Shown: positions 10,301 through 63,214 of the stretch, one piece after another
Numbering within the stretch: position 1 is the first letter of the stretch
How the letters are laid out: each line of letters begins with the position of its first letter
Source: Schmidtea polychroa
Taxonomy: Eukaryota
NCBI GenBank assembly: GCA_044892525.1
Contig: CM097887.1
Coordinates: 21,452,001-21,516,000, forward strand
DNA length: 64,000 nt
Direction of reading: 5' to 3'
Made by a program: the position numbers and the translations under genes
The notes under the pieces: model-generated
Told to the model about the DNA's origin: nothing
Database searches by the model: none
The model's input: only the letters and a program-made list of their open reading frames with translations

Positions 10301-13300
10301 CGGAAAATAACTACTTCGATCGATAGCACTATTATTTTCAATTAGAAATATTATCACGGTAGATATGAAGGAAAATTTCAATAACAAATTAAGACATAAT
10401 ACATTTTAGTTAAAACACGATTGTAAACTTAGCTTTCCGCCACGTGAACAGTTCCATCGTTGATTTGGATTTTTCGTAGTCATCTTTCATTTCATCCTTG
10501 AGGCATACTCGCATCTGGTACATCTACCGTAGGAAGTGTAAGAATTTCCAACAATAGGAAAAGTTAGACGAAAATCCAGTTTCAGATAGTGTTGTGTGAA
10601 CTAACAGGCCGTAGTAGCATCGCGAAATTTTCCAACGTAAATTGTGCAGATAAGCCACATTCAATTCATACTGATAAGACATATGAAGCGGGTTGATGAG
10701 AAATTACCAAATCGGTAGAATGAATCCAATTTTTTTTGTTTTTGCTTTACGTGCATGCATTGATAAGAGGCTCGTTAACAAACTCACGAATAGATAAGAG
10801 CTCATGAAAGAGATAGTTGATGAACCCGAGGAGTTTCAATTCACACGGCATTATATCCGATAAGTAGTGAGCAGAAACGAACAGCAATAAGCATGTGCAT
10901 CCGAAAATGACTCACATGTAGTAGGGCCCAGGTGGGTCATTCACAAGTATTGATTACCGAGATATGACAGTAAAGAGATAAGCCACCTGCTCTACAATTA
11001 TTCCGCTAAACATGAGACCCCTTTTAAAGTGCATTCATTAAGATTAATTTTCCTAAATTACGTAATTTAGATTATAAATGAATGTATCAGTGTGGTGTCC
11101 TGTTGATAATAACAAGAGATATTCGTAACCAAATGATAGAACCTTTTCCTAAATCGATGTAGAGTATTGTTATAGTCCAACCAAGTATAGTAAATGATAA
11201 TCACAACCTTAATCACATCGTTAAATTTGTCAGAGTTTTTCTAGCGTGAAATTTCTCCTTCCCATGAGAAGATTGAATTTAGATTTCTTAAACCCTACTC
11301 AAACTATGGATTATACTAAAAATTTAATAAGTTAATAAACTTTCCTGTATTTACAAATACCATTACAGTATGAAGGACTTCTGATGATCGTGTTAGAGGC
11401 ATATTTAGGTGATGATTGTGAAATGCCGACGGGGAGATAGTGGAAAATTTCGAGATGGACTTGAACTGATAAATGCGACCGGAGCATAGGCTTTTTACTA
11501 AGTGCGTTTCGTTCCAAATCTTAACTCAAGTAGGGAGTAAAATAGAATAATTAATCAACAAAGTTAAATCAATTAAGGGGAATAACGAATTAAACTAAAG
11601 TAAAAGTATAGAGATAGGTTCTAAACAGCCATAAGATAACTTTTTGGGGAATTACCTTGGTGCACGGAAAAGGAGAGATCCAAGGAGTAAAATTAGGTAA
11701 AGGACAGATAAACTTGTGATGATCGACTATACAGGGAGATAATTGATCTCATTAACTCATCTTGTCCTTCCTTTTGCCAGGTACTTCACGGCAAATAGAC
11801 CCTTATAGCTAACTGACGATTATACGTATCATTATCTTAATTTTCTTCGTTACAGCCAACCGACATGTTATCACAGAATAAGTCAGCAATACGACCCTGC
11901 TTCTCCTGCGCAGATAAAAACGCAGTGATAAAAGATCTACAAGCCCAGATCGGTCGATACAAGTGGAAGATCGACGAGCTGGAAGGCACATGGTTCAGCC
12001 CAGTGCAAATGAAGGAGATGCAGAAAAAGCTTCATCGCAGCGAACATTGATGGATTTGATGTGGGAAAAAATTCAAATGGATATTCATTGATGATTTTTC
12101 ATGTAAGATTTGATAGTCGCTCAAAGTTTTACTCGACATTGACAACAACAACGAAACGAACCGAGAGAAATTACAATGAATTGAAGAACTGATCAAATTT
12201 CCAGCATCATTTTCAAAAGTAAGTGTTCGAATTATTATTCCAATTGATAGACATGTTAAAATCAATAAAAAACAAATTCCGTTTTCGTTTTGTTAATCTC
12301 CTATAATTTCAATTTCATCTGAAGATTACAGTAAAATCCAAATCTAAAAGAAATGAAATCTAACATCGAAAAATAAATAACTGTAACACATCTCGTTTTT
12401 GATTGGCTGCTTTTCATGAACGTAGAAAACCAATACATGTACAAACCAATACACGCATTCAAATTCCACTTGGAATGCACACACCAATTTTCGAGTACAC
12501 ACTACTAATCCAATCGGAACAGAACACGCATGCTCACATGCCATGCCATGCCGCCGGCACACACACCAACCGACACCGCAATGTAAAATCATTAACATTC
12601 CGTTCATTCAACCATGCAACAAAAAAACACTTTGAAAGCTGCACCGGCACCACCCATTCCTCCACTCACCCTTATCATCAATACACTGCGGTAGTGCTCA
12701 AATGCGCGTCTGAACACGCCCCTGAGCTAAACCGCGCGTTGCGCATCACTGCGTTTCCTCGTTGAAACCAGTTCAGACGGGCAAAGCTTCTATGCCACCG
12801 CTGATACGAAAAACGTGTTGCCATACTCTGTCCCTTTTCAATCACAACTCCAAACTATCCAACCAAACAACGGCAATCACTTTCATCAATATTCTTGCAG
12901 TTATTTTGTTTTAATGGATGTCCAAATGAAATGACATAAATATATTTGCACTCAATACAGTAAATGAATAACAAATAATAATAAAAAAAAAAGATTGTAA
13001 TTCAAATGTAATATTCATAAAGTTGAATCTCTGAATGCATCCGTATAAATTCAGAAATTGTTTATAGTAAATCATATATCAGGCATAATTTTTAGGAAAA
13101 TAAAATATTTTATTAACAATTTATAAATTTTAATTGAAAAAAAAATTAATTAGGATTTGTGAACTGAAAAAAAAATTTCTAGGAATTTTCTAGTTAATTA
13201 AATTTTCCTTAATTTTCATTTTAATGGTATTTTATTTATTAACCTAAATTTTCCAAATTTTTATTTTTTGTAGTTAATTAGAAATTTTTTTTTCTAATCC

Positions 13301-19800: not shown

Positions 19801-22800
19801 AACTGTCATCTCGTGATGTACGGATGAATGTATGATTTCAAGCGTTATCATATATTGTAAGCAAATGCGCAATATCACCAAAAGTTTGGTTACTATTAAG
19901 ATCTTATAACTTCGGAAAAGTTTATGTTCAAATATAAAAAAACAAATCTGAACTTCAAGTGGTTCGAGCGACGCTACAAAACTGTTTATCTGATATTAAT
20001 TATTAATTAATTATGAAAAGATCGCACTATTCACAGATACTTTTCCGTAAAATAAGATTTCATTGGGAATTGTAAACCGGGCTATAAGGAGAGAAAAGAA
20101 AATATTAATTTTTTCTATCCCAGGTGGCGCGATCATTTCAGTTACTGACCCGGTATTCGAAGAAAAACCATTACTTAACCGACTTTCACTCTGTCGGTTG
20201 ATGAGTTTCTCTAAATGTATTGGCATAGAGACATTTTCAATATTTATTGCCAGTGGGCTTATATTGTTCTATAAAGTGTGGTTTACGCCTGTCATCACTG
20301 ACACTATGTTTATTGCCTAAATTAACTTACCACCTTACTATTTGTTTGCACATTATATGCCTGGTTCTACTTCTGGGTTATTTTATCCGCTTCCCTCTAT
20401 TTTCTTCCGGATTACCGTGTAGTTCAGATATGTCAAACTTGCGGCCCACTTGATATATCAGTACAAAAAAAACAAAACAAAACTTAAAAAAAAAAATTTC
20501 TATGTAATCACTTCTTATAACTGTTACATTTAGTTTTTATCGTCCATTAAACAAAAAATTAAGGAAACGAACCCCAAAAATCTAGTTAGGGTGCGAAAAT
20601 AAATTCTGCTTTGTCGTACTATACCGAGGTATGTTTGTTATCCTGCTCCAAGGTTCTCAAACAATTTTGGGATTTGAAAGACGAAATATGTCAGTTTTTA
20701 ACATCAAAAAAACAAGACATCGCCTTATGGTTGATATAACGAAACACTTATCCGATTTAAATTTGAAACTGCAAGGAAAGGATCAAATCATTACAAACAT
20801 GTGTGACCAAGTTAATGCATTCAAATGTTNNNNNNNNNNNNNNNNNNNNNNNNNNNNNNNNNNNNNNNNNNNNNNNNNNNNNNNNNNNNNNNNNNNNNNN
20901 NNNNNNNNNNNNNNNNNNNNNNNNNNNNNNNNNNNNNNNNNNNNNNNNNNNNNNNNNNNNNNNNNNNNNNNNNNNNNNNNNNNNNNNNNNNNNNNNNNNN
21001 NNNNNNNNNNNNNNNNNNNNNNNNNNNNNNNNNNNNNNNNNNNNNNNNNNNNNNNNNNNNNNTAGTTTTGTTGAGTTTTTAATTAAATAAATATTAACTT
21101 CGGTGTTTCAGACTCCACATGTTCTGAAAAACAATTATTTATGTTGCGGCCCGCCGGCTCATGATACTAGTCTAATGCGGCCCGCAGGCCAGTTTGAGTT
21201 TGAAACCCCTGGTGTAGTTGCTCTCTCCTGTTACTACACTGAGGCTAGGTTTTAAATGATTCTATACTGGTATGATATTTCTACATGGATTCCGCCCTAA
21301 ATTAAACCCGGTCTTTATTACCCATTCTAAATTTAATTTATCTGTATTCCTATAATAAATTTAAGCAATATTTCTCTTTTACTTAATATTTTAATAAACT
21401 CAAATTATTGTTACGCCAACTTTAATATCCCATTAAATTTTAATAATAATTTCATGCTTTACTAAATTTACTTTATTTTAGTAATTGACTTGACTTTAGT
21501 TGAGTCTGATTGTTTTAAAATTTTATTTATTATATGAATATACGCGCGTTATTTATATAAACATATCGAAATGAATTTGTAATTAAATATTTCTTTTTCA
21601 TTTGTATAATGCCTAAACGATCAGTCACACTGTCGAAAAGTACTTGGACCAAGTTATATTTTCCTCAGTTGTGACTGCTCATACCGAGACAGGATTTTGG
21701 TCTCTGTGGATTTTAGCGAGCGGAAATTAGGATTGGCCTTAGGGTAATTCTATTTAATTAGTTTGCACTAACAGTTCCATAAGAAACATGAGGGAAATTG
21801 TTTCGTCGAACTGCAAAACCAGTCCCAAATAAATTAACGCGGTGAATTTTTATTAACTCACATTGGAGTTAATTTATCATTCATGTCGATAAGTGGCCAC
21901 ATATAGTTGAATCACAGATATTGTCATAAATTCAGATCAATTCAAATAACTATTGTTATGCATTTTGGTTACTACCATGCCTCATCCTGGTTCCGGTTAT
22001 TACTTGTTTGATGCCCTTATTGTAGTGTCGGCTATAGTAATTTGTTACGGAAGTGACTTATTCATCTCGCTCGACACAAATGTGTTTTTGATCACAAGGA
22101 CCCTAGATGGTTCATGTGCTCATATTAAAAAATTATTTTAATGTTTATTTGATGTTTTTATTATGATTTTTATTAAACTTTTTGCGTTATTTTTGCTTTC
22201 TCCAATCAGTCTCATCTTTTAATTTAATTTATTAATTAATGGCCTTCTGGCAAACACATGTTTGTATTCTTGGTTACGCTGGAAACAGCACGAAAGGTTA
22301 AAATGTGGATTACATGTAACCTACCACTAAGATAAAATCACAAGAGGAAAAATAAACTTTTAAAAAATAAATTTGGAAAGCAAAAAAATCCATTACTCAA
22401 AGATCTTAGCACTTTTAATGAAAAAAAATGAACTACAACATAGTAGAGATGTGATAGAAAGGTACGTTGACAATTCCGATTCCTTTGGTGACATATTATT
22501 TATTGTGAAAGTGCAAAAAGTTGTGTACAAATATACCGCGCGTGTAACGGGGGAATAAATTTTTGTTTTTATGATAAAATTATAGCTTCCCAGGAAAATG
22601 TTGGTAATTTTACAATTCGATTATGCAACGAGCACTGGCAGAACTATAAAGAACGCAACAAAACTTTGGGTAAGCTGGCGTACGCGGTTTGTATAACAAT
22701 AAAAGCTCGCATGTGACAGCCACTAGTTGTCTATGTCTGACTATTAGACCTAGAAAACGACGTGGCATTTGTAGCATGAAGTTTGAGCCCCGAGTGTACG

Positions 22801-25800
22801 GCTTACCACAAATGTTAAATAAAGATCATTGAGTACCAATAACGACTACAACGCGACCAATAGCGAAAAAGCCACAGATGGCTCGCGAGCCAGTGTTTGG
22901 CGACCACTGAACAAGAATGGTGATTTGTGTTCCATTCGAGCTTATTTCAAAACCATTAAGATTATAAAGAACTAAAACCCTTATTTAATTTATATTGCTT
23001 ATAATATACATTCACAAATATGAAATATGAAATAAAGTTCAATGACTGATTCGTAAATTTGGACTGTAAACTTGTCTGTCATATTTAACAATTCTTATTT
23101 GTCATTTGTTTCGATAAGTGGTCAGATATAGTCATAAATTCAGATCAAATCATTTTATTACATACGGATCAAAAATTCTTTGAATTTTAAGATCTGCTAA
23201 CGTTCTTTTCAAATATTCCACTGTGACATACATTGTACAACATACGTTTCCTTGTTAAATAAATGGACTGATTTTATATGACCAACATGTAAGAACGGTT
23301 GTTATGTACAATTCTTGTAAAAAAGCATTAAATTGTAACTAACTGTTTGAAATATATTTAGGCAAACAAATATTGTATTTATATTATATCTTTTAGTATT
23401 CTTTTCAAAAAATATCATAAATTTATTCATTTCTAGTATTTTAGAAATCTTATATTTCTTCGGATTTTTAGTGTGAAATATACATCTTAATGATCAAAAA
23501 CTTGAAATAGCCATGTTTAGCAATCATTAATAATTAATTTAACTCATGACGCTGTATTGTTATTCTACTTTAGATTTAAAAGTATAAATATCACAAAATT
23601 AAACTTAAATAGGAAATTTAAGATATAAAAATTATTTATATTTCGTTCGAAAGAAACTTTTTAAATACATTTTGTTTAATTTTATAATTTGTTAGGCGAC
23701 GCTCTAGTGTATGTCGCCCAAAATTTTAAATTATTTTAACTCAATAACTCAATAAATAAATTGATATGTATACACTTTTAACATACCCACCATGAAAGTT
23801 ACTGATATTTTTGAGTTATTCACAATTATAAATGACAATGAGCTTTTAATTCGATATCTACAAACGCATCACCTGATTTCTTCAACAAAAATTTGTCACT
23901 GTGGACGCAACATGTCCTTAATTAAAAGGGCACAAACAAGTGACGGTTTTGTATTTCAATGCCCGAGGAAATGTGGTCAGGTTTCTATTCGAAAAGGAAG
24001 TTTTTTCGAAAAAAGCAGAATGCCCCTTAAAAAACTGGTGTTATTTACGTATTTTTGGCTGCAAGACATTCCCACGAACAGGATACAGTCGATGATTGGT
24101 ATGGCTAACCAAACAATTTCTGATTGGAATAATTTCCTATGTGAGGTGTGCTCGGAATCTTTACTCGGAATGTCGGATGATGAAAGAATGATCGGGGGAG
24201 AAGGTGTGATAGTTGAAATTGATGAAACTTTGATTTCAAAGAAATGGAAATATTATCGCGGAAGAAGATATCCCGAAATATGGTTATTTGGAGGAACCGA
24301 ACGTGGCACAAAAAAAATGGTTTGGACAAATTGTTCTTGAGAGAAACCGAGAAAATCTAACTGCTTTGATTGAGAAGTTTATTAAACCGGGCAGTATTAT
24401 TTACAGCGACAGGTGGCCCGCGTATTGGACAGAAACTTATAACCTGGTACATTTAAGAAATCAAAATTATATCCACTTATCTGTTAATCATAAACTCTGG
24501 TTCAAAGATCCAGTAACCGGTGTCCATACCAATAAAATGGAAGGATGGTGGGGAAATATTAAGGTTGACACGAGGAAAAGGCAAGGAATGAGTGTTGAAC
24601 AAAAGATTAATTTTCTTGATTTTCGATTGTGGCTTTCAAGACAAAATGTTGATGAAGAAGATATTTTGATTATATTCTGGCGCTTGGTTGCTTCGAAGTA
24701 TAGTTTCGATGAATAAATTTTTAATAAACGTATTTACTTATATTTCATTTAAATATATTAATTTAATTTTAAATTAATTTAAAATTTTGGGCGACATACA
24801 CTAGAGCGTCGCCATTTGTTAAACGAATTAATTTTTATCATATAATAAAAACTATTATATTTTAAGATTCAAAAAATTCTCATTTCGGAGAAACTTAATA
24901 AATGGATTAAATTATAATCATTGAAGTGTCAAATAAAACAAACCTTATCATCCAGTGAAGATATTATTCTGCCCCAAGGATCTGTAGCTAGTGAGTGACC
25001 ATAACTTACATGATTTGCTTGATAATCCCGAGCTATGCTGCATAGGCCAACAAAACATTGATTGTCTAACGCGATTCCTCTACCAAGTAATTCCAGTATG
25101 CAGGTCCTGTAGCCATATTAAATGCTGCGGGATACAAAAGTAAATTGCATTTTTTGTTTCGAGTGTAGATTCCAGCTACTTCAGGAAATCGAAGATCGTG
25201 GCAAATACCAATACCAACAGTAACATTTCTATCTTTACATACAGGAATATTAAAGGAAAGAAATTCACTTCCTGGCACTGATGTCTCAGACTCGTTATAA
25301 ACTAAATTACAAATTCTATATATGTTGCAATATATATTGAAATTTATGAATTATTTATCTTATTACCAAAAATATGAAATCAACCATTTTATTTATCTTA
25401 TTTAGATAATTATTATAAATATATTTAAACAAAAATAGAACATGTCAAAAATTGTCGTTCATTTAAAAAATAAAATTCTTCAAATTTCTTTAAAATTTTC
25501 TTTTATCCAGAAATTTGATTTTCTAACAAATAATTAAAATGCAGAGTAATTTCATTAAGTATTTCTCAACCCAAAACTCACCATGGACAGCAAAATGGAT
25601 GCACGACAACTGGTTCACTGACAAATGGATCACCGACAAACGGATCACAATATTCAATTCACGACGTTCGGTTACGCATTTTTTTATTATCACTTAAAAA
25701 AATTGTTATTGAATTGTTTAATTAATTGAACCTGAACGCTGTACCTATTAGTCCAGAACTAATATATATATATATATATATTGGTGGGTTACAGGTAATC

Positions 25801-28800
25801 AAAAATTTTAACTCATCGCGCCATTTCCAGCGTAACCCAGAATACAATTGATGTCTTACCACTTGATACCCTCTGAGTGATCAGCGTTGGTATTTTATCG
25901 TATCAAGGGTTTGAGTACCAACAAAAAGTGAGCATGCTCCGCATACTATAATTGTCTAGTACTCCCATAGGTCCATGGACTTCCGATAGAAGGCCTGTGT
26001 CCGATTATGTCGGGTTCGGTTTTATTGTATCTGGGTTTACATCCGATATTTTGTGAAGGGTATGTTAATATTATTAGCCTGAGGATTCATTGCAAACTTA
26101 TTGGTCGAAATTGATTAGTAGTAAAAATCGATAATTTTAATTATTGAAAAAATTAAATCGATAATATGGATTACCCAGTTATAATTTCATCACGATAATA
26201 AAATTTGAATTCGTAACATAAGTTAGTTTGTAATTATTTTCAGAGGGTAGGGTGTTGATGATGCCATTAGCTAAATAATATAACTTGATAATAATAAGAT
26301 AAATTTATACGGGGTAGAGTAATGATGAGGATATACTTGGTATAGATAACATGATTTGAATATTATTTAAGTAGATAAGAATAAGTTTATATAACGTTAA
26401 TAGGACAAATCTAGTTGATAATAACAAATTGGCAAGGATATAAGTTAATTAGTGTGAATCATATAAGTTGGGTATAAGATAATTTGATAATAATGTAAGT
26501 TCAAAATATAAGGTTAATAAGATAAATTAAGTTAATTACATATAAGTTGATAATAATATAAGTGTTGGATGACTGGGGTCGACGAATTAAAGAATTCGAG
26601 GTGATAAAATGCTATAAGACCGGCCCAAACACATATCGGGTAAACATCTACGTATAGTCCGAACAATTCCAATAGCCAAGTCAAACAATCACGTCTCTAT
26701 CAATTCAAACAATCAATGTTCCATTCAACAGTGATTCATTCGTCGAAAAATACTCTATATATGTTGGGTTATTGGGTTGGTGATAAATTTAAATGTTACT
26801 CTAACTCCAAGCGTGTCTTTATACGATCCACAAATAATACTTGACAACAGAAATCTTTATTGATAATCACAAATAAACTTTCACTTTACACTGACAATCA
26901 ATTCAACACTCTGCTTGGTGACTATACTGTTAGGTTCGAGGAGTATGTAGTCGAACTAACACAAAAACGTTTTATCTGACTCCAAGTAATTAATTTGTGC
27001 GTGTAGGTAAATAAATAAATAAGATAATATGTTTTAAATATTTATTTAACGATAAAAAGTTAGTTACACGTTCGTTTATATATATTTTAACACGCTGCTT
27101 TCTATAAGTACAGAAAACGGTTATACAAACCGCCCTAAAGAGTATTACTAAGGATCAAGGCTGGCCCTAAATGCGCCAACAGCCCGATATAGGTGAACGG
27201 AAAAGAGATAGGGAAGTTTACCAAATATTACGCGATAGAGTCAACCCAGAAATTGGTTAACTCTTTTTCAAACAATTATTAATAGCGAAACAACACAAAA
27301 ATACGTGCTGACACTATGGTTTCCCTTATTTAAGTTTAATTTAATTTAAACAAATAAGCCTTTTATACAAATATTGATAATTATTTAGATAATGATAAAC
27401 TAACTAATTCAATCTTCTTCCCAAAATGGCTCCAAAGAATATTAAATTTAATTCACGAATAGTCAAAATTAATTCCTATTGATCGGTATATCCAATATCA
27501 CTTGGAATTCTCCAATCAGATTGAAGTTTTTGAATAAAGTAAAATTCCAAAATTGCATAATTAATTTTCTCTCGCTCGATGAACTTCTTACTACAGTTAA
27601 ATTCCTAAATTAGTTTTTTCCTTTTTTCAGAATCGAATTGATTTTTCCTATCTAAATTTAGCTACTGCGGTTTTCTTAAATTCGTCCGCTTATCTCAATT
27701 TTTCGTCCCTTCCATCTAATTTTTATCTACTATTTATATAAATTTATTTATTCTAATTCTATTAATAGTAATTGTTTAATTACTATTTTTATTATATATT
27801 TTTAAATAATTACTATTTTTGTTAGAAATCTATTTTTAGTAATTATTTATTACTATTTATATTTTAGTTCCAATTTTAGTAATTTTTAAATACTATTATA
27901 TTATAATTCTAATTTTAGTAATTAATTATTATTTAATTTCAAAACCTTTAATTCCGGTTCCTACTGAACCCCAACAATACCAAGCTTATTACAACAATCA
28001 GTGAGGAATAGCACTTGCGTATAACACCGGATTAAGAGATCACAAATTACTGATTGGTTTATCAACTGAGACATTGAGCTGGTTGTTTTTTTTACTTTCT
28101 TCACAAATTTATTCAAATACTCAAGTAACTTCTTTTCGTTTAATTTTTCAACTAATTCTTTTATTCAAATCTTCAGCAACAATTGTTCTTCACAATTATT
28201 TTCTTTACAATTCTTTTTCACAATAGTTTCTCCAACAACGTTTCCTCAGACGTTGTCTAATTTTTCTCTAATAATTTTATCTCTCAAATTTGTCTCTATA
28301 CTTGCCTCTCAAATTGTTTCACGAATTGTCTCTCAAATTGTCTGAATTTGTGTCCACCAGTTTCTGTTTATATAGTTATTTTATTTGTGGAACTGGCTAC
28401 AAATTCTGTTTTTAACTTTCGTTTTCCTCTACGTCAGCCTTATCTCTGACAGATATATAGATATATTTCCATTTTCCATTTTTGTTAAGCCGCCTTCTCC
28501 AGACAATTTCGCTATCTCTGACAAGCTGTCAAGCTATGGCTTTTCCACTTATTTTGTTTTTCTGGAATTTGGAATTCCACCTCTATTTGTACTTCTTAAT
28601 TAACAATGACGTTTGTTTTAATTTCTTGTTTGTTTCCTTTTATTTGATTTATCTTTCTCATTTTAATTTCTTTTTACTTCCGCTTTCTTTTCTGAGTTCC
28701 CATAGATCGTCCAGTTTGTCATGACGATCTTCCCAAAGGTAATTTATTTATTCATTATGTTATATATCATTTAGGTATCCTCAACATATATATTTATCTT

Positions 28801-31800
28801 AGACAATTACAAATATTTATGTGTTGGTTTTTTTGTAAATACTTTATATATCTTTATCGTAGATGAATATTTATGTTGTTGGTATTTTTGTAAACAATTT
28901 TATGAATTGTTTTGGTGTGTCCTTAATTATTTATTCTTTTATGTGTACATAATAATTTTCATAAAAATATATCTTAAAAACGGGGGAATTAATTAATTGT
29001 AATTATATAAATGGGGTTATTAATCAATTTAAAAAAATTAGCAGGTTTTAAAGATCAATAAAATATAATTAAATTTGAATTCAGAACATATGTTTTTTCA
29101 CACTTAAAAATAATTAGGAGTAAAACAATATGAAAATAACTAAGGTTATAGCAATATAATCACAATATAATTAAGGCTACTATAATACGTAAAAATAATA
29201 TAACAATATAATAATAATACTATATTAATATAGTAGAAATATAGTAAACAACTTCGAATGTCCTTAATATGATAAGAGAATAAAAGAAGTACAAAAAATA
29301 CGCGAATATATATAAATCGAGTAAATGGTCAACGAGACTATTTTAAAAATATTTCCATAATAGAGACAACTAAAAATATAAATTATTGGAAAAGTATTTT
29401 AGAGCGAATTGTTGAAGTAATTATTTTTTTGTCTTCGAGAGGATTGGCTTTTCGGGGCAGCAATGAAATTATTGGCAATAAAAGTAATGGAAATTATTTG
29501 GGATGTATAGAGTTACTAGCAAAATTCGATCCACTGTTACAGCAACATTTACTGGATTTTTAAAATAAAGGAAAAGGGACAGTATCATATTTGTCATCAG
29601 TAATTTGTGATGAATTTATTGAAATTCTAGGTAACAATGTTCGAAGCTCTATTATTGCAGAATTAAAGGAAGCCAAATATTTTTCTATCATAATTGACTC
29701 AATACCCGATATTTCACACTTAGATCAGCTCACAATTGTTGTTAGTTATGAGAACACTGTGGGAAATCTTGTAGAGATTTTTAAATTTTATTGAAAATGT
29801 CGGTCATAAAAGTGAAGAAATGGAAAAATGCGTAATAGGACTCTTAGAAAAATACGGAATTGATTTAGAAGATTGTAGGGGGCAATCTTATGATAATGCC
29901 TCTAATATGTCAGGAATTTATAGCGGACTTCAGGCACGAATAAAGTTAAAAAATAATTTGGCTATTTATGTACCATGTGCACCCCATTCCCTGAATTTAA
30001 TAGGTGAGTGTGCTGCAGAAAGTTGTTTGGAAGCCACGAAGTTATTTTTTTTCGTTCAGAGTATATATAATTTTTTCGTTGCTTCAACTGGCCGTTATGA
30101 AATATTGAAACATCGCTTATCTGTGAAATATAAGATGCCAAAATCACTGAGCAGCACTCGATATGAATATTTTAAGCATGCTCTTAATGATATATTTACA
30201 GATTTAACACAGAAATGTTCCACTAGAATTGAGGCAGAAGGTTTGGAAAAGCAGTTCAATTCTCTCGAAACTAGTTTTATGCTTTCATTTTGGAATGATA
30301 TTCTGGAAACCATGAATAAAATTAATGTTAGCCTCCAGAAAGTTGAAATTGAAATTGAAACAGTGGTTAAATTATACACTTCATTGGAAACATATATTGA
30401 AGAACGTCGAAATATAGATTCATTTAATTATTACAAAAAGAAAGGAGAAAATCTATCGGGTTGTTTTGAATTTAAAACTGCAGGAACTGTTAAAAGAAAA
30501 AAGCAGTTCGATGAAGGGACATCAGCCGACACACAATTTGATAAAAATAGTAATTTCCTTATAAATATTTTTTATGCAATTATTGATAAACTTTTGGCAG
30601 AAATAAAAAAACGGAAATCTGCATATGATCACATTACCACTAAATTTGGAATTTTAATGAATTTAAAACATTTCGACGAAATATGATACGAGAAAAAGCA
30701 ACTATTTTATATAAAGAATACCCAGATGATCTTGAAAATGGTCTAATCGAGGAATGTTTACATTTTAAACATGTAAATTTAATATCGTATAACTTAACAG
30801 CATTATCTAAATCTGAGCAAATTTTAAGAACAATAATTGAATCGCAAATTGAATGCACTTTTCCGAATATAACAACAGTTCTACGAATATATTTAAGTAT
30901 CACCTGTACAAATTGTAGCAGAGAAAGGTCGTTTTCAACTCTCAAGAGAATAAAAAATCATCTAAGATCATCTTTAGGACAATACAAATTAAATAATTTA
31001 AGTATTTTGTCAATAGAATCGGATGTCCTTGAGAAACTGGATCACAAGAAAATTATAGATATATTTGGTAAAATATAAATGCCGCAAGACATATTTAAAT
31101 TAAAAATTAATATTTAATTCACATACAGTAATACCCCGCACTTACGTACACTTTGGGATCGGAGCGTGTACCTAAAACAAAAATGTACGTAAAATGAATC
31201 TACTGCTTTTATTGATGAATAATATGTTTGAAATAAACTAAAACAATAAACATATAAATAAAAAGAAAAAGAAAAAGAGGGATATTATGCATGTAGTTTT
31301 ATACTTTTATTTTAGTGTACATAAAACGGGGTATTACTGTATTTATATAAATTTTTTGAATTTGGTTTTGCGTAAATACATATTTAAGTTTTGAATTTTT
31401 GAAAATAAAATTGAATTTTTATAATAAAAGTATGTAGGGGTGCAAAATTTTATTGGGCCCAGGGCGCTCAAACTTATTAATACGGCCATGTTAATATCCA
31501 CAATGAATTGTAAACACCACGTTGACGACAGTTAAGTAAACAACTAAATTACCAATAAAATAGACAATACTGATGATAATAACAACTAGAAAATTTGCGA
31601 ATAATGTTGATAACAAAACTGATTGACTGATTACTTCAGTCCTTCGACTACCTGGCGGAAAGGCTACTTGTGATTAATATCTTATCTTTTCAGAGAAATG
31701 TCCAAGTCAAACCCAACCGTAGCCAATCTCAAACCGTGCTTCTCGTGCGCGGACAAAAATGCAACTATTAAACAAGGGCATATAGATATAGGAGCGTCGA

Positions 31801-34800
31801 AAAAGAAAATCGATCATCTAGAGGGTACATGGTTTACTCCAGCCCAAATGAAAGAGGCCAATCGGAAAGTGTTAAGACTCGAGCACTGCCAGGATAGCAT
31901 CTTGGAAGAAAATCGAAATCTGCGCATCACCATCAAGTCGCAGTCCAAAGCTCTCCATCGGATATATACCGAATCCGAAATTAAGAAACGGGTCTCAGAA
32001 TGCCCGGTTCTCGATGAAACCAATGTGTTCCTGCACATCACATGCACAACGGTCTCTCGCATGTCACTAAATCTATCTGTACTAACGACGATGAAGAAGC
32101 TTCACGTCTCTCACCTGAAGTCATATACATTGGTTCCAGCAAGGCTCTTACTAAGACCAAAACTCCTACAATCCAGCCTTCGCTGGACACTAATCCACTC
32201 AGTACTATCAACTCTAACAGCCGGCCGAAGAGAAAACGTTTGATTCGTGCCGAGAAATCTAAGCGTCCGCAGAAGGCGTTTTATTTTCGGTCCCTCCAGT
32301 AGTTCCACCACTGATAGCTATGCCGACAGCGATGCAAATCCCTTCTTTCCGCATGATACCTGCGACTGCCACTCCCTGGCCCTATGATGATCAGCTAGTA
32401 GCGGACCTTGAACTTCTTCTCCAGGAGAGGGGTGATGTCTTTCCAGCTGACAATGCCACGGTGGAAATAGCATAGTTCTATGTAGACATGTTTCGCCACA
32501 ATCCTTGCGTTAGATTAGACGTGAACGACGATAGATGATTGCTAATAAATTTAGTGTTGTGGCGAATAGAATTTTGTTTTCTTTTAAGTTGTTATCGTAT
32601 AGTTTTTGTTGATTAATCTGCATGATGAGAGTTGATATTACCCTTCGGACCTAGGTTTGAATAATTCGTTGTATAAGTACTAATTCAGTTCATAAGGATG
32701 TAAGCCCTTCTATCGGTATTTCGTAACCCGTAAATGAGGAAGCTATGGAGAGTAGTTTTAACGCTCATCAAATATCCTCAGCTACTATGTGCAATACAAA
32801 CATGTTCGTCACCATGGGCACATGAGTAGTCAAAACAACAGTCACCTTAGTATCTAGGAAGGAGTCGGGTTGAGTCAGCCACAAATACCCCTACTTCCAT
32901 CTTATGAGCAAGACACACGCCTAGGCGCCAACAGTATTTTTAATATAATATCTTTATTTATGAATTTAGAAAAAATATTATTTATTCAGGAAATTTTAAG
33001 TGTTAACAAATGCTCACATAATGATTTTATGCATTCAACAAATCTTATGTAGGAACCATACGAAATTGATATGTCGAGCAAGAAACTTAAAGGGTTAGGA
33101 TGTTGTGTATGTATGTGTATAATCTTAGTAGATAGATGTGTGCACTCCCGATCCTATAGGAATCCTCGAATCTCAATTTTTTTTGATGGAATAGGGGAGG
33201 GGGGTACCTTTTTTAACAGGTAGAATTCAATTCCCTATAAGATGATTTGATTTTAAATTTTATATTTCGTTTTGTGTATGCAATACACATGTTTTCTTGA
33301 GTTTTTGCATTTTTCATCTAGTAAAAATAATTTCCTTGAGTTTTTACTGTAACAATGTAACGATGAAATTTATTTCTCTACAAATTAGTATGATAAAAAT
33401 TAAAAGTATTGGATTATTTTTTGTAATAAAATTTCTAGTTGAAATAATTTTATTGAGTTTTTAATGTAATGTCTATAAACTGGTTTGATCTAGAATTGAA
33501 AATGGTTGCAATAAATTATTACTTTGTTGCAATTCGATGATAAATCTATTTATTTGTTGCGATTCATGTCATTATTTTATTACTTTGTTTCAATATTTTT
33601 ATTATCTTGTTACATTTTGGATAAATATTTCATAACTTTGTGGAAATTTAACGAAATATGTTATTATTTTGTTGTAATTTAATGAAAAGTCACAATTTTT
33701 TGCAATATTTTTATTAATTTGTTGCCTTTCACCGAAATAATGTAATACTTTATTGCAATTTACTTACACTATTTTATTACTTTGTTGCAATACTTTTATT
33801 ATTTTGTTTTAATTTGATAAATATTTTATAACTTTGTAGAATTTTACCGAAGAATGTTATTACTTTGTTGTAATTTAATTAAAGATTTGATAATTGTGTT
33901 GTAATTTATTGTAAAATATTTATGAAATTGTTGCCATTCACCGAAATAGTTTCTTACTTTATTGCAACTTAATGAATACTTTATAACATTATTGTAATTT
34001 ATTGAAAGATTTCGCAATATTGTTGTGATTTATTGTAATATTTTTATTAATTTTATAACCATTAACTGAAATATATTATTTTGCTATAATAATATTTAGT
34101 GATTGATATAGTTTAAAATACTGCAAAATAAGTTATTATTTAAACTCATATGCAATAAAGATGCCATATCAATGCATGATTTCGATTGGTTGATATGTGC
34201 TTAACTTCTATCATTTGTATGTACGTATGTATGAAATAATATTAATGTGTGCGTCTGTATAAAATAATGTTAATATCAGCGTCTTTTTGTGTGTGAGTAT
34301 TACGTGAGTATTACACCAACATGTTGGTGTATTGTAAATATGTATGTATTAAAATATGTACATCTATTACACTAACATTTGTGTTACTTATTGATTCTAA
34401 AAACTTTCCTACTCCTTACTCGATTTTGATTGATTGACGTATGTGTAATTACTTGAAGAATAAGCAAATGCTTTAATTTTATTATAATTTATTGTATTTA
34501 ATAATTTTTCTTTTTTTAGTAAACCGATGCAATTTATATCAATTTGCGTAACTGAAATTCATAAAGATGTTAATTATTGCAAGTCTGCTACAACATCATA
34601 TTTCAAGATACATGATGATAGTTTATCGGGTTATGCATGTCCTGAAAGTCTCACCTTTACAGCGGGTTTTACGGCAATTTGGAGATATGAAGAGTAGTAT
34701 GATAGTGTTGGGCTAAACGGTTAGTGGCTGTGAACTGAGTAAACGAAGAAAAACAGAAAAATAATTAAGTTAACAACAAATAAATTAAGGACACAATAAT

Positions 34801-37800
34801 AACAAAATTTAGGAAATAATAAAAATGAAACCCAAAAATAAGGAAAAACGTAAATAAAAGTACGAAAATTTATTAGAATTTGAAGAAAAACTAGAAATAG
34901 GCCGTCACAAACCCAAAGACACCAAAAATAGGCGAAATAACGCAAAAATACAAGAAAAATAATAAAATAACTAAATAAAACAAAATAATACACAAGAAAA
35001 ACAATAGAAAATAAAGAATAAAGAAAAATAACCAAAAAAACAACCCGACTCATTTCTAATTGGTTAAAATTTATTATATAAGGCGGCCGCTAAGTCAGTT
35101 AGATAACTACTTCAAAATCAATTTAGGTAAGGACTTTTAATATAGAAAACTACTTCAAAATCAATTTAGGTACCAACTACTACCAAACCAAGCAACCATT
35201 TCGGAAATCACTAATTCAAAGAAAAATCTATCAGGAATCTATTATAATCGATAAATTTGAACCACACAAGGCTTATAGAACTATTCTATATTATTATATT
35301 AGCAAGCATCATTCAAGGATTCGTAGATCTCATCGAAGCTCTACTTACTGAATTACTAAACGAGAAAGGATTATTTAACCCCGAATTTCCTCTGTTCACT
35401 AGCAACTAATTGTTGAATTTCCAAGTAATTTAGTTGAATTTTATTTATGAAATTTGTTATATCTTCATGAATGGTTAATAATATTTAGAATTGTAAAAAT
35501 GTTATAACGAAAATATTATTTTATTAACAACCTGCCTTTCTCCTTCATGGAACCGGCGACGATGCCGTCTGAAAACCCCGAGTGTGATGAGTATGCAAAA
35601 TATTAGGCTTCACAATTATGATGTGAATTTCAACTATGCCATGACTTCGCATGCCAGATTTATGCAGTGAAGGGAGACGATATGAATTACGTGCTCAGAG
35701 TAGCCACCGGAATGGCTTAAAGATTAGTGTAGAAACATCAGTTATGACATCATACTCGGATTTCAAAGGGCATGGTCGCCGAGTAAATTTATTTCATTTA
35801 TTATTTAATCATTAAAAGTAGACAATTGATAACCACATGGAATGTTCTGTAACAATATTTATTTTTCATAACATTTATCTGATATTAGTATTTCGATTTT
35901 CATATTTCCTTATTATTACTAATAGCATAAATGCGGTGAACTCTGTCTATCAGGACGATCTAGAGAACAGTAGGTAGGGATACCGGTAGTATCTGGATGG
36001 TCCTGGTAAGCGGAGAAAACATGACTATATAATCCATCGAGGGCAATTACAAGTGTTTTCATCGAGAAGCAATAGAGGTCATTTTCGCGAAAGATTTTGT
36101 AACTCTAAACATCGTCAAATCTCATATGATTCTAGATTTTTTCTACTAGACAAATTCCAAGTGATCTAGGAAAATTCCGTTCGATAGAGTAGCTTCCGAC
36201 GCAGTTGTAGAGTTCACCTTCACTGAATTACGGAGAATTATCCATTTCTACTTCTTTGACCAGACAATCATTTTCCAATCGACTCGGAGAATTTGCATAA
36301 TTTACGACCGAAATATTTCCAACGTTTAGTAACAGTACGATTACGGTAATAGTCAAAACTCGATGTAGATTAAGATATACAGTTTTCTTACGATCGGAAA
36401 TAGCATCTCTGAATTCGCGAATCATCGCCAACGCTTCATTCACAAACGACAACGATTAAATTTTGCCGATAAACATCCGACTAGTAGAATCCCACCGCAC
36501 GACTGTAATGAGATTTTCACCAAACAAAGAAGATAATATAAACAAATTTGGACCAACGATCACTCGATTCGACTAAATCCGTCAGACTTGTTTATCCATA
36601 ATCATTATCCATAATCATCATAATGTAAACACTTGCAGTAAACTGGAATTAAGAGAATCTACTGGAAAAGCGCAAATATTTACACGTCGCCGAATGATAA
36701 GGCTCTGAGATGAATTTACAAAAATCAACTACACATCGGCAGATTGAAACGCTTGGCATAAATAATAAAAATGGTCGGCGAATAATACATCTACTATTGA
36801 AATAATTAAACTTAGAATCTCACATGAAAAATCTAGAATTAGTTATTATTATTTAGGTCTAACTATTTCTCTAAATAAGGAAATTAATACATTCAGTACA
36901 TAAAGACAATACAAATTTCACCTTAATCGAAATCCCAGCAAGATAATGATGACGAGTTTGATTCTGTTAATAAGTAAATTGACGGTATGAGGAGGGGAAC
37001 AGCCCTGAGGCTGAAATCCACCGAGCGGTCAGCGACTAGTCTTGTCTACCATAATATGTCGATTTAGTTTTTTTAACTACTTCATTTTCCAGAAATGTGT
37101 GATCCCAATCTGCCGCCGAAGGGACTTCAAACCTGTTTCCTTTGCGCGGATAAAAATGCCGATACCAGAAAACTACAAGAATATAAAGGCACGCTGAAGA
37201 AACGAATTGAGCATTACGAATGTAGATGGTTCTCTCCTCCCCAAATGAAGGAGGAGAAGACGAAGGTATTGCGGCTGGAGCACTGTCGAGACAGCCTCCT
37301 AAAAGAAAGCCGATTCCAACGGCTAACGATAAAAGCTCAGCCTGAAGCTTTGCATAAAGTCTACACCGAGACAGAGATTCAACGACGGGTGCGTGAGTAT
37401 CCCGATAAAGGACGGGACTAATGTATTCCCGGTTCATCATCGAGGAGACGAATTTCCACCAACAAAGACAGATTGTAGCAACCATGGAAATCATTTTCCA
37501 CCATTGAAGGATCCCATTCTATCCGGATCGAAAGAGTTAAACCAGGTATCTACTGATACCGCCACAACAGCCGCTGTATCCATATCCGGTTCTAATAGTA
37601 TCTCTCTCGTCTCGACGGCCAAGAAACGAAAGCGCCCATCGCGGGCCAAGAAAAATCTAAAACGAAGGGATGCGTTCGCGGTTCTAGAAGCATCCCTATT
37701 CGCTGCCCAAACCCATAAAGAACAAGCTCCAAGGATAACCGTATCCACTCCACAGGAGAATTTCTGCATAATTTCTACGAAAGCGTCCCGTTTGTGTAAT

Positions 37801-40800
37801 GATACTCAGCTTCAGGTGGACATCGACGCCCTGATAGCTGAGGGCGATATGATCTGATAAGTCAAAGCCAAATTCAACGAAACCAATTCCCTGTTCAAAG
37901 ATTTACCTTTCTAAACGTATGGTGTGACTGTATCCCGTCAATTTGTTAGATGATGAGGGTAGGCCCATCATTACATTTACCCTAGATAAATATTACAGAA
38001 TGGGGCCAAACAAATATAGAGTTAATGTGTTCGCTGAGGAACGGAAATAGGCAAAGCTCCAATGCTCAAACATACCCGCCAATCCAATTCCCAACAGTGC
38101 AATCCAATCCAATACAACCCGAAAAAACAATAATTATTCTTATCCTTTGTGATCCTATTAACAATGTATATATTTTATGTTTGACAATCATTATTTTATT
38201 GATTTTATTCATTTATTGTATATGTATATATTCTTACATTTATTGACTACATTTGGTTTATGGGTTAATTATTTTATATTGTGAATAAATTTTATCAACA
38301 AACTTAACATTATAATAAAAAGAAGGGGATTGAATAAAATTATTATATTATAAAACATTAATTATTATTATAAAAATATTAATTATTATTTAAAGTACAA
38401 TGTAGATTATACAAAAATATATTTAATTATGTTTTATCAGTAGAAAATTATACATTCCGTGCGTACAAGACGGAAATTAATATTTTAAAATTAATAGATA
38501 AAATAGATAATAACATCTGCTATAAGAATAGCAGGAAATAATAATTATAATAATTAAAAATGAATATAATATTCCGTGCGTATATGCCGGAAATTAAAAT
38601 ATTTTATTTTAACAGTATTAAAAAATAGTATATATACCACATCAAAATTCAGTAAATCTGCCCTAATTTTCTTAGGTTTTCCTGAATCTTAAAGAGGCAA
38701 TCTCTGCGAGATTTAAAAATAAGACAGCACAGAAAGTCTAACATATTTTGTTTACAATCAAAACATAACACGCACGATATACATTATAACTATACATAAC
38801 ACGCATCGTTGAATAGCGAATTATTGAGAAAGATCAAAGGATAAACTCTTGTAATTAAAAGGTTAATTTTATTTGTTAATAAATTTTGTTCAAACACTTT
38901 GTTTTTATTCAAATAATTATATAAGAACCAGCAAGTTGGGGTTTTAAAAAAGTGAGACCTCAACAAATTGATTTTTCAATAATTTTCTTACTTGTGATTC
39001 TTAAAGTATTTTGTGTTACTCAATAAAACTTATTGACGTCAAATTTATAAAGTTACGATGAATTATTTTAATGTATGTGTGAAATCCATAAGAATAATAA
39101 TGACCACGATTTGTTAAAGACGTCCCTTGGACCAGGACACCAGTCTGTGATTTGGAAACGAGGTAAGTCCTTCTATGGCACTCTTGAACCCGAACTGTGA
39201 ATTCTACCGGGAGAAGTTCTACCATGGGAGCTCACCTGCTGGTAGTTTCCGACCTGTGTATAAACTACCAACGTGTCACATCACCACGGGTATACATAAG
39301 GGGAGATGATTGCTAAGTCATGGAGATTACCCAAGCTAGTCTGTCTGAGCATGCGAATAATTTGTTTTTCTTTTTCCTCTTGGGTAACCAACAATAGCTA
39401 AGAGTAAGATTACTTATACTATAAACAATTAATAAATTTTGTTTTCCAGTACAATAAAACATGTCAAGACTACAAGATCTTAAGCAAATTGATGAATATG
39501 TTACAAGTAAAATTTTAATTATTTTAACATTGTTTAAACATTGTTTAACAAAATACTGGTTCAACTAAACGAAAGCATACCTCAAGCGAAAGTGGAGTAA
39601 TAAAAAAGGAAAATTATATCCGCCGGGAGTTTAATTAACAAGGTAGTCGCTTTGAGCTGACGAGTGATGTATCACAAGATACTTCGCAGGAAATAGTCGT
39701 ACCGGATAGCCTTATCAGAAAAATGAATGAAAATATTGAACAAATGGGAGTAGCTAAAGTTCAATTTAGACATTGTGCTGAATTAACCAAAGAAGATGGT
39801 GAACTCAAGCAATGGCGCTTGTCGAATAAAGCAGTGATAATGTACCCATCATTTATTGAAGATGGAATTGAGATTTTAAAGGAAAAGTTGGAGAAATACA
39901 CTCAACAAAGAGGTTACAATAATTGTAACTTAAATATCCAATATAATACAGGTATCTGGTAAGTTTTAAATATTATTATATATTATTAGGTTCAGGTTAC
40001 ATTAAAACTCAAAAATATCTAAACATGTGCCAAGCTTTAATTAATGTTCAATGATCAATTTTACCTTTTATATATCATATCTTAACCTCAATAGTTTTTA
40101 CCACGTTGTCTACCAGTATAAATTTCCAACTTGAACCCTGTGCTATTTCTTTTTTTATTTGTTCTATTATCTATTTTGTTCTGTATTATCTTTTTGCCAC
40201 TTATTATCTTCAGCTTTTTCCATCGTGTTGATTCTTCGGGTTTTCATTCTTTCCACTTTTCCGTCTTCGTGTGCCGATAAACATTGTGTGCATGTTCCAC
40301 ATGTACTCCATGACAACATATCTGCATTTGCATGATCAGTACCTTTTCTATACTCTATTTTAATATCCAGACTACTGAGGTAGTTAATCCATGTGTGAAA
40401 TTGCGTTGTTATTGGTTTCATTGTGGATAACATAAACGTGATAGCTTTATGGTCCGTTCTCAAAATGAACCGTTTTCCATATAAATAATGATTGAAGTGT
40501 TTACAAAAATAATAGATGGTCAGTAACTCTTTCCTTGTTATGCAATATCCCTTTTCATGATTGCTCATTGCATGAGAACCGTATGCTATAACCTTTTCGC
40601 ATCCGTTGTCGTTTTTCTGTGATAATACTGCTCCAATCGTGTCAAAACTCGCATCAGTATCCAGAATGAATTCTCTTTCGAAACCTGGAAATCCTAGAAT
40701 AGGTGAGGACACTAAAGCATTTTTCATATTTTTGAATGCGATGTTGCTTCCGTCAGTACAAATTAATTTTTTGTTGTTTAATCCGCATAGCTCTTCTAAA

Positions 40801-59223: not shown

Positions 59224-60066
59224 TGTTGAGGATACCTAAACAATAAATATAATAAATAATTAGAATAACTTGGGGGGCGGGAACCGATAGGGTGATTGGA
59301 ATACCGCTCTGAATCTTAAAGAAAAGAGAAAAGCAAAAATATGAGAAATGAGGAAGAAATAAAATACAACAATAAAGCATAGAAAGGTCACTTTTTTTTA
59401 AAAAGTGCAAAAAAGCAAAAAGGAATTCCAAAATTGGAAAACTAAAACAAAACATGAAAGCAAAATCGGCATTTGGAAATAGGGAAATATATGCAAAATG
59501 GCAGAAGCAGAAAAAATGACAAACTATCCTGACTGCCAAACTACGGGAGCTATTCACATTATGGAGACAGAAATGGGGAAAATGATTTATCAAAAGTGTC
59601 GGAAAAGTGCAGACTATAAAAGCAAGTCTTCTTAATGGAATCAGAAAAATTAAAAGAAATAATTCGAAATCATAGAAATTAAAAGTGAGAAATTAGTACT
59701 TTGAGAAAATATTGGAACTAAACGGTGTCACAAAATTGAGTTCAATAAGAAAGGTTTAAACTTTAAAATATACTGAATAAATTCAAGTCAAAGCAATTGA
59801 AATTCAATTCAATTTACCAAACTATTGAGTCAGATAAGCGGCTGGTGATTGCTTAATAATTGAGAATTTTACAAGTAGAGCTATTCCTCACTTAGTGTCA
59901 TAATAAGCTCTGTGTTTTTCGATAGTGTTGTTATAATTCGTGTAATCAATAGTGATAATCAATAAATGTTTATATTGTCTAAGAATTGTTAATTTGAGTA
60001 TCAGATAAAGAGTCAGAAATTTGATTAGTAACCTTTATATATTACCACCAACCAAATAACCCAACA
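59224..60066 (+). mobile_element. Solo-LTR-like element
   Basis: TGTTG...CAACA ends, A-rich U3-like region, TATAAAA at about 59615 and AATAAA at about 59961; homologous to the 26563-28786 elements. Confidence 0.55.
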
Positions 60067-60132: not shown

Positions 60133-60193
60133 TTTTTTTTGCTTTTTGGTTACGTAACTGCTGCTGTAGTAACATAACCAAAAAGCAAAAAAA
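60133..60193. repeat. Short inverted repeat (about 19-bp arms)
   Basis: tttttttgctttttggtta ... taaccaaaaagcaaaaaaa. Confidence 0.85.
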
Positions 60194-62169: not shown

Positions 62170-63214
62170 TTTATTAACTAAATTAAATTCTGTTATATCC
62201 GAAATGGGATATGTTAAAATTTAATTCTGCATTGATGTAGAATTTGAAAAAGATGGACAATTTCAGTTTTTTATAATATCTAATTCGGCGAAACCCATGA
62301 GTGATACCTTTTTAGATGACAGTATTGCTCTTTTGAATGAAAAAATAACTGAAGTCTGCGAAAATGGTAGCAACTGGTCAATAATTAAAATTAAGGAAAT
62401 TAGTTTTAAATTGACAAAATATTCACAAATAAGTAGATTAAGTAGATAAGTAGATAAGTGGTCACGGATGTATTGAGAATAAAGGTCTTATATATGTGGG
62501 TTTTTCTTAGACCTAAATGTTATAGTTTGTTAGATGATGACGAGACTAAAAAAACCAAAGGAGTAACATTGAAAGGTAGTGACTTAAAACATCTGTCATA
62601 CCTGAATTGTTACAATACCAAACAAATTTTTTCGGTACCGCAAACTAGAATAACTAGCAAAAATTACCGATTCCCGGTAAGTTTATCGAAAACGAGTTTA
62701 TCGAAAGCGAGTTTATCGAATGATCAATTGATCGAATGACGAGTTTATCGAAAAATATTATTTTTAAGGAACTTACGAATTGTGGATTTTATCTCAAAAA
62801 AGCATGTCTCTTTTTAAAAAATTAAAAACTTTTAAATACTTTAATTATATACAGAAATTTTAAATATTTTATTCGATTTTATTCGCTTTCGATAAACTCG
62901 TTTTCGATAAACTCGTCGGCTACCATTATTTCAGTATTTTTTGCCTTAAATCTTTTTTCAATATTTTTTACCCAAAACGAATTTTTTGTAACAAATGCTA
63001 TTATAAACACATTTTAAGTTTCTGCGTATAAAGAAAAAAATTTTAAAGTTTTTAATTCCTTAAAAATAATATTTTTCGATAAACTCGTTTTCAATAAACT
63101 CGTCGGCTACTAAAATTACCAGTTATTCACCATAAAAAAATGAAAAAAACAGCACTTACCAACGCAGATGATAAAAGTGTTTGGGTGGGGAAAAATACTA
63201 GTTATGGGCATTAA
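62170..63214 (+). mobile_element. Internally deleted Polinton/Maverick (adintovirus-like) protein-primed DNA polymerase B remnant
   Basis: N-terminal-type ENGSNWSIIKIKEI..KLTKY joined to C-terminal FLRPKCYSL...KKTKGV and ALTNADDK...YGH*. Confidence 0.65.
62669..63111. mobile_element. MULE-like MITE inserted in the polB remnant, 9-bp TSD AAAATTACC
   Basis: TSD at 62660-62668 and 63112-63120; inverted arrays of gagtttatcgaaa / tttcgataaactc; excision restores TSKNYQLFTIK. Confidence 0.8.

Follow-up and report, generated by a model that had tools for sequence, protein, structure and literature searches.

A candidate accessory gene family, apparently related to the planarian GLT2 and GLT transposons, within putative solo giant long terminal repeats of Schmidtea polychroa

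Complex retroviruses possess small accessory genes in or near the long terminal repeat (LTR), including sag of MMTV, tas/bet of foamy virus and nef of HIV, which overlap the LTR within U3, as well as Rev, Rex and Rem. Among planarian elements, the giant Gypsy elements Burro/GYPSM1 are reported, in the section of PMC6431247 that deals with them, to carry accessory open reading frames (ORFs) and tandem repeats, with multi-kb LTRs implied. Two further transposons of Schmidtea mediterranea, GLT2 and GLT, appear in the probe table of PMC8532177, where transposons were mapped with Repbase consensus sequences. The passages of that paper on GLT2 report that it is neuron-enriched, repressed by SMEDWI-2 and de-repressed in neurons upon smedwi-2 knockdown, and they do not describe its protein or structure; cells lacking SMEDWI-2 are reported to lose their identity without extra DNA damage, and neither RNA interference (RNAi) of BURRO1 nor reverse transcriptase (RT) inhibitors gave rescue. 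Here we describe four copies of a gene family in a 64,000-nt stretch of Schmidtea polychroa DNA (GCA_044892525.1, contig CM097887.1, positions 21,452,001 to 21,516,000; hereafter the window). The explanation that we favor, and consider moderately likely, is that this is an accessory gene family from a planarian mobile element akin to GLT2 and GLT, that it resides in a solo giant LTR, and that it encodes a regulator of its own element. Judged from sequence, the carrier appears to be related to these named transposons, and the new component is a protein that matched no family or fold library searched.

The copies of the family are distributed as follows.
2899..3359, minus strand: coding exon of copy 1, a distant member whose frame is open from acceptor to stop and matches the GLT2 probe frame.
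11865..12050, plus strand: copy 2, 61 codons followed by a stop and unrelated AT-rich DNA.
31698..32475, plus strand: copy 3, broken, with frame changes near 32030 and 32260.
37095..37857, plus strand: copy 4, broken, with a frame change near 37400-37420.

The sequence-only reading had proposed a novel family on the basis of shared amino acid motifs, and a pattern scan located every one of them at its copies: C-x-x-C-ADKN at 11898, 31737 and 37134, WFxPxQMKE at 11991, 31830 and 37227, ExEIxxRV at 31971 and 37368, TNVF at 32019 and 37417, KRKR at 32228 and 37624, DxQLxxD at 32386 and 37801, and ESTWFPPTEMK of copy 1 on the minus strand near 3250. However, the motifs do not share one frame, being divided among three frames in copy 3 and two in copy 4, and copy 2 stops at 61 codons. 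That reading caught the family but not the enclosing unit, the splice sites or the link to GLT2. Copies 2-4 are broken and copy 1 is a distant relative. Identity between copies 3 and 4 is 52% across 103 aa (E 2e-32 within the window) and between copies 2 and 3 it is 62% across 53 aa, whereas copy 1 matches weakly (E 3e-4).

Past purifying selection, which the same reading had suggested, was borne out between copies. When copies 3 and 4 were compared over 103 codons, 65 first, 77 second and 41 third positions were identical (Fisher p 6e-7), and a dN/dS-type comparison gave ratios well away from 1: the ratio of nonsynonymous to synonymous differences (pN/pS) for three copy pairs was 0.32, 0.28 and 0.43, with synonymous sites saturated in these estimates, as compared with 1.05-1.78 in shifted-frame controls. 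The GC content at third codon positions was 0.44-0.63 in the copies versus 0.23-0.42 in other ORFs measured. The family is real, was formerly under selection and is now decayed in the window.

A phmmer search against 1.84 billion representatives returned six matches, and a profile search of long candidates matched 16 of the 8000 scored, 12 of them new. The 18 relatives (P0001-P0018) are single-member records and all are chimeric gene models. In 17 of them the family segment has an unrelated Pfam domain attached, a different one each time; examples are MCM6, FBPase, actin, furin-type peptidase and hAT transposase, and one call, PI-PLC-X, falls below its cut-off. P0018 had no Pfam match. Such a spread of 17 fusion partners would be expected of gene predictors that meet a dispersed repeat with a strong splice acceptor, and at least 17 public models of otherwise unrelated genes (P0001-P0017) can be flagged as chimeras with a repeat ORF. 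No stand-alone member was found, because none of 1755 candidates in a profile search restricted to 33-216 aa matched; a single-sequence homolog search gave 0/1 candidate. Of 190 pattern hits in prokaryotic genomes none was a usable match, and phages gave none.

A profile built from the relatives alone recovered copies 3, 4, 2 and 1 (E 2e-15, 5e-13, 3e-4 and 0.054, respectively) and also placed copy 4's basic patch in register. CxxC-ADKN and QMKE, which had been put forward as the family signature, are by this comparison traits of a subfamily only: ADKN and QMKE are missing from all 18 relatives, as is a CxxC in register. The motif that runs through the family as a whole is instead T-W-x-x-P-E-x4-L-x3-I/M-x2-L (15/18 relatives), with an N/D-I/L-I-P-x-x-H motif at the position of TNVF in 13 and an Arg-rich patch (P-N-R-x-R-R-R-type) in 11. 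A tree of 21 aligned rows plus copy 1 separated copies 2-4 from the relatives; the branch of copy 1 was long and unreliable. To judge from base composition and the GLT probe matches described next, the relatives are presumably planarian, like the window.

Both GLT probes listed in PMC8532177 connect to this family, in that the GLT2 probe encodes the family motif and the GLT probe encodes an ORF joined to the family segment in P0018. On the reverse strand of the GLT2 probe, read by hand, 79 open codons follow an acceptor-like site and fit the motif. Aligned without gaps to copy 1, this frame was identical at 18 of 63 positions, with C-R-x-x-E-x-T-W-x-x-P in common and the same intron phase; when the same stretch was compared with 135,873 windows, the best non-self score was 15 and came from a family member. 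In a hand count, 14 of 27 positions agreed between the GLT probe and the second part of P0018, as compared with 9 for the best unrelated match among 136,737 windows. Identity of the GLT2 frame to copy 1 is about 29%, and to copies 2-4 it is less, so these are related families and not GLT2 itself. A relationship to GLT is, on these alignments, probable.

All four copies lie in mobile units of a single kind, whose recognized parts are given below.
2582..8693, minus strand: unit E1, 6112 bp, starting TGTTGGGCT and ending GTAACCCACCA, with the direct repeat AAAC (4 bp) on either side.
2582..2801, minus strand: shared 3' block of E1, running from CCTTCTATCGG through TACCAACG to the CA end.
3854..4345, minus strand: ORF A, the second gene of E1, 163 aa, open, 55% GC, with an Arg-rich tail.
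8992..9480, plus strand: 5' end of unit E2, with TGTTGGGCT, an A-rich block, promoter-like motifs and donor-like sites.
34706..39393, plus strand: unit E4, 4688 bp, starting TGTTGGGCT and ending GTAACCAACA, flanked by ATAG; its 3' block spans 39169-39393.
32706..32933, plus strand: 3' block after copy 3, with CCTTCTATCGG and a CCAACA end 227 nt downstream.
25782..26006, minus strand: orphan 3' block with 81% identity to the E1 block.
22262..22326, plus strand: final ~65 nt of a further 3' block, also an orphan.

The 5' 9-mer TGTTGGGCT occurred three times as compared with 0.23 expected (8693 minus, 8992 plus and 34706 plus), each time followed by the A-rich block and located 2.4-4.3 kb upstream of a family locus (copies 1, 2 and 4) on the same strand. 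At the other end, CCTTCTAT(C)GG occurred four times versus 0.07 expected and was followed each time, about 205-230 nt further on, by a CA end; copies 1, 3 and 4 each have such a site downstream, and the remaining one is an orphan. Alignment of the E1 and E4 3' blocks scored 50.5, with 29 as the best of 40 shuffles. Both complete units (2/2) are flanked by 4-bp target duplications, the 4-mer frequencies of AAAC and ATAG being 0.008 and 0.004, and their ends read TG(T/G)TGG ... CCA(A/C)CA, with an imperfect inverted repeat of only about 9-10 bp. Units with common integrase-type ends and target duplications bear out a mobile-element origin, and the family gene is very probably a mobile-element gene. 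The TG...CA ends and 4-bp duplications of E1 and E4 are as expected of solo LTRs of Gypsy-type elements, which have target-site duplications of 4-6 bp, and we infer that the 4.7-6.1 kb unit is rather likely a solo giant LTR. Compared with Burro/GYPSM1, the units share the host group, the implied LTR length of several kb, accessory ORFs and tandem repeats (E1 contains arrays with periods of 76, 100 and 115, in addition to ORF A and copy 1); the accessory ORF of Burro differs in lying upstream of the polyprotein and in having a MATH domain, and the PMC6431247 section on Burro makes no mention of a spliced gene inside the LTR. Burro/GYPSM1 elements also have a Gag-Env-Pol polyprotein between their LTRs, and no such interior is present with the units.

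Several other sequences of this type were noted. E1 and E2 are arranged head to head, with 300 bp between their starts (8693 minus, 8992 plus). At 49526-49632 (plus strand), TACCAACG is followed by a GCCCACCA end at 49632, a terminus of the same type, and further termini of unit type include an A-rich 5' end at 27976 (minus) and weaker ends at 57702 (plus) and 42671 (plus). A second repeat family has a related TGTTGGGTTA terminus (26762-26870, plus, versus 59952-60066, minus; 73% identity over 118 nt). A DDxG ... GPNxYRVN peptide is common to 37943-38050 (plus), after copy 4, and 26562-26660 (plus), between two orphan termini (E 1e-5), and possibly represents a further small exon or gene of the units. 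ORF A did not match the family, and its predicted model was too poor to search (pLDDT, the predicted local distance difference test, of 55). Upstream of copy 4, 35547-35600 (plus) could be a relic of an ORF A homolog in an E1-like order, and this homology is not established (p 0.02 among 16 tests, uncorrected). An antisense frame inside E4 (35950-36720, minus) has 8 stops versus 17 expected (p 0.01, uncorrected for frames) and no Pfam match. An alternative E4 end at 38096 was ruled out, having no duplication and ranking 65 by profile, and a CACTA/Transib-type end was not enriched.

Of the 2187 ATGs of the window, 23 are preceded within 12 nt by a pyrimidine-rich CAG. Among these are the ATGs of copies 2, 3, 4 and ORF A, which make up four of the six acceptor-preceded ATGs that open at least 60 codons. 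The acceptor lies 9 nt before the ATG in copy 2, 4 nt in copy 3, and 2 nt in both copy 4 and ORF A; the acceptor of copy 1 is at 3360. Promoter-like and donor-like motifs were found in E2 (ATTGG at 9343, TATA at 9369, and CAG/GTAAGA near 9425 and 9474) and in E4 (ATTGG at 35059, TATA at 35075, TCAGT at 35095, donor-like site at 35127), the latter with AATAAA near 38283. In both units ATTGG, TATA and a donor fall within 500 nt of the start, a combination not found in E1, and initiator-like sites accompany them. As motif matches, AATAAA occurs downstream of the ORF in E1, E4 and copy 3.

The AlphaFold2 model, built from 21 sequences (mean pLDDT 79.5; predicted template modeling score 0.43), consists of a helix at 15-43, a kink at W-F-x-P, a second helix at 48-89 and short helices to 106. 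Heptads are present in both long helices (pLDDT 86-94). Beyond these, a Ser/Thr/Pro linker leads into a basic block, in which most members reach +6 to +8 per 20 residues, and then comes an acidic tail. The model and charge profile agree with the coiled coil, basic patch and acidic C-terminal part that had been read from the letters. A lone CxxC cannot form a zinc finger by itself; as a guess, it might bridge two chains. As to known families and folds, a Pfam scan of the protein gave no match (best E 0.04-0.09), PHROGs gave 0/9 rows, a PDB profile search had a best E of 0.084, and Foldseek returned 0 matches in PDB and a best E of 2.6 among viral structures. In VIA-align the model, which covers residues 1-111 only, resembled generic coiled coils (best Z 5.6), and an ESM Atlas search gave nothing usable. 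A description of the protein was not found in the literature searched; Repbase and Grohme 2018, which were outside that search, may already note ORFs. The protein family is apparently uncharacterized.

Taken together, these features can be arranged into a candidate life history. The unit would have been inserted by a retroviral-type integrase, and a gag-pol interior would have been lost by LTR-LTR recombination, leaving the solo giant LTR. Transcription of E2 and E4 may begin at a promoter located about 370 nt into the unit, producing a short leader that would be spliced across about 2 kb to the acceptor ahead of the ATG, and the RNA would end at the AATAAA preceding the 3' block. The predicted product of ~250 aa may self-associate via its two heptad helices, kinked at W-x-x-P; its Arg/Lys-rich helix could mediate nuclear entry and nucleic-acid binding, and the acidic tail could serve as a partner surface. 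Such a protein might act in trans on its own element, by Rev/Rex-like RNA export or splicing control in the first place and Tas-like transcriptional activation in the second. That it is a self-regulator is a plausible but tentative proposal of our analysis, in which a small regulator seems the better of the functional guesses made by the sequence-only reading. The likeness to complex retroviruses lies in small spliced accessory genes in or near the LTR and in an Arg-rich motif combined with oligomerization helices (oligomerization being judged from heptads only). The differences are that no sequence or fold match was found and that the retroviral genes lie in U3, whereas here the unit seems to have its own promoter ahead of the ORF.

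A number of observations weigh against this explanation. The probe matches are hand counts and not tool scores, made within 400 characters per probe, and GLT2 is an LTR element only by our assumption. The 3' end of E2 and the 5' end of the unit with copy 3 were not found in the window, nor did the window reveal a paired unit around gag-pol, a primer-binding site or a purine tract; the end of E4 was located via its duplication first, and its homology to the E1 end was checked afterwards. It is unusual for an LTR to contain several kb of transcribed and spliced sequence, and ATTGG/TATA was not found in the first 900 nt of E1. The 3' block folds well in E1 alone (z -3.65, as compared with 0.06 in E4 and 0.58 after copy 3), which does not point to a conserved RNA target such as the structured response element that, along with an export signal, belongs to Rev/Rex-like regulation; compensatory pairs numbered 3/53, in two copies. 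Lastly, a resemblance of ORF A to the tail of P0018 was seen by eye only and was not significant (p 0.085-0.37).

We weighed four other explanations, of which the first concerns the carrier and the rest the protein, so that they are not fully exclusive. The whole 5-6 kb unit could be a non-autonomous, Ginger/TDD-like DNA element with short inverted repeats, its integrase encoded elsewhere and its ORFs being cargo or helper genes. Ginger/TDD elements have a TGT start, a 4-bp duplication, introns, terminal inverted repeats of 40-270 bp and an integrase ORF. The TGT start, 4-bp duplication and introns are shared by our units, whose termini would suit any Gypsy-type integrase; the unit would moreover form a complete transcription unit with introns, and no interior was found adjoining any unit. 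Against this, the inverted repeat is short, imperfect and LTR-like. Furthermore, Pfam gave no match to RT, pol, integrase or recombinase beside the copies in the frames scanned, which comprised all six upstream of copy 2 and at 35900-36700 and, for the rest of E1 and E4, those of the sense strand. No Pfam, PHROGs or PDB support was obtained for motifs of RT, recombinase and env picked out by eye in the flanks, those ahead of copies 1, 2 and 4 included. A DNA element of this kind seems unlikely to us.

A lower probability still is given to an anti-silencing factor that shields its own element from nuclear silencing by PIWI-interacting RNAs (piRNAs) and H3K9me3. The VANC proteins of Arabidopsis VANDAL elements act as such factors. 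Deep divergence of the subfamilies would fit host conflict, the internal tandem arrays of E1 could be binding sites, and the effect of SMEDWI-2 on GLT2 in neurons reported in the GLT2 passages of PMC8532177 is in keeping with it; however, the arrays are not common to E4, and the selection between copies is purifying.

Slightly less probable again is a structural protein resembling Gag or ORF1p, which as a coat or RNA chaperone would package the element RNA, the first identity offered by the sequence-only reading. The LINE-1 ORF1p has a basic character, an N-terminal coiled coil, an RNA recognition motif (RRM) and a C-terminal domain (CTD), and its ORF comes first in an element that goes on to ORF2 and a poly(A) tail. 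A long coiled coil with a basic tail, the make-up of ORF1p and of foamy virus Gag, and the strong past selection would suit this role. The family tail differs from ORF1p in being low-complexity and not RRM-like, and neither Pfam nor PDB searches matched the RRM or CTD folds (the model spanning residues 1-111 only); E1 and E4 end in CA with a duplication, have no ORF2-sized frame downstream and lack a poly(A) tail. Nor does Gag fit well: the single CxxC is confined to a subfamily, there is no CCHC knuckle, no pol follows, Pfam gave no match to Gag or ORF1p families, and the family ORF is the last gene before the 3' block. Foldseek with the model of residues 1-111 returned no match, capsid folds included, at E <= 0.001. 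In addition, Burro already has a canonical Gag, according to the section of PMC6431247 on it. The ORFs inside TG...CA units with 4-bp duplications, and not at the 5' end of a LINE or a gag-pol region, without RT or pol beside them by Pfam and without a CCHC knuckle, leave that earlier identity unsupported.

A host multigene or domesticated gene cluster, such as a prog-like family, would account for four copies in 64 kb with introns and purifying selection, and is scarcely credible in view of the broken state of copies 2-4, the integrase-type ends and target duplications, the relatives in 17 unrelated gene models, and an N-terminus that by inspection lacks the hydrophobic signal which prog proteins, a secreted family, carry in the account given in 10.1101/179986.

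Two other element classes were rejected. Polinton/Maverick elements have long terminal inverted repeats, a 6-bp duplication and adjoining core genes, and an accessory gene of this class does not fit units with 4-bp duplications, TG...CA ends and no long inverted arms. DIRS/Crypton elements have a tyrosine recombinase ORF and make no 4-bp duplication, whereas 4-bp duplications are present here and the recombinase-like motifs had no Pfam, PHROGs or PDB support.

A broader and rather speculative possibility is that planarian giant LTRs are self-contained spliced genes for Rev/Tas-like or anti-piRNA regulators, that solo LTRs are dispersed expression cassettes, and that GLT2 RNA encodes a nuclear protein. 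Giant end-repeats may then be small self-contained genes and not merely switches. Provided that the units are LTRs, they would offer an invertebrate counterpart to the genes that complex retroviruses encode in their LTRs, the gene in this case following the promoter of the LTR itself. Neuron-enriched, SMEDWI-2-repressed GLT2 RNA, acting as mRNA, could contribute to the differentiation defect of piwi knockdown, and the family protein would be a concrete candidate for a point left open in the passages of PMC8532177 on SMEDWI-2, the loss of identity of cells lacking it.

The window as a whole has 32% GC, contains no tRNA by scan and is dense in transposon relics (pogo, Merlin, three hAT, a Gypsy RT/RNase H piece) along with a broken RING-finger gene. 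An AT-rich hairpin at 60134-60193 (plus) scored 35.6 bits against Rfam mir-9, with a threshold of 58.6, and is probably due to chance. Related decayed ORF pieces at 39639-39960 (plus) and 62186-62400 (plus) share 36% over 55 aa, have no Pfam support, and presumably resemble the N-terminal part of Maverick-type DNA polymerases. An intronless broken gene with a RING-H2 match at 43947-44671 (minus), which we take to be RNF115/126-like, is probably a retrocopy. The transposon relics include two pogo transposase pieces (17437-18477, plus, and 168-782, minus), the Gypsy RT/RNase H piece (40167-41003, minus), a BED-finger hAT with a long open frame (51490-53310, minus), a second hAT that ends upstream of copy 3 (29775-31490, plus), and a Merlin/IS1595-type element at 23695-24813 with 45-nt terminal inverted repeats that are 98% matched.

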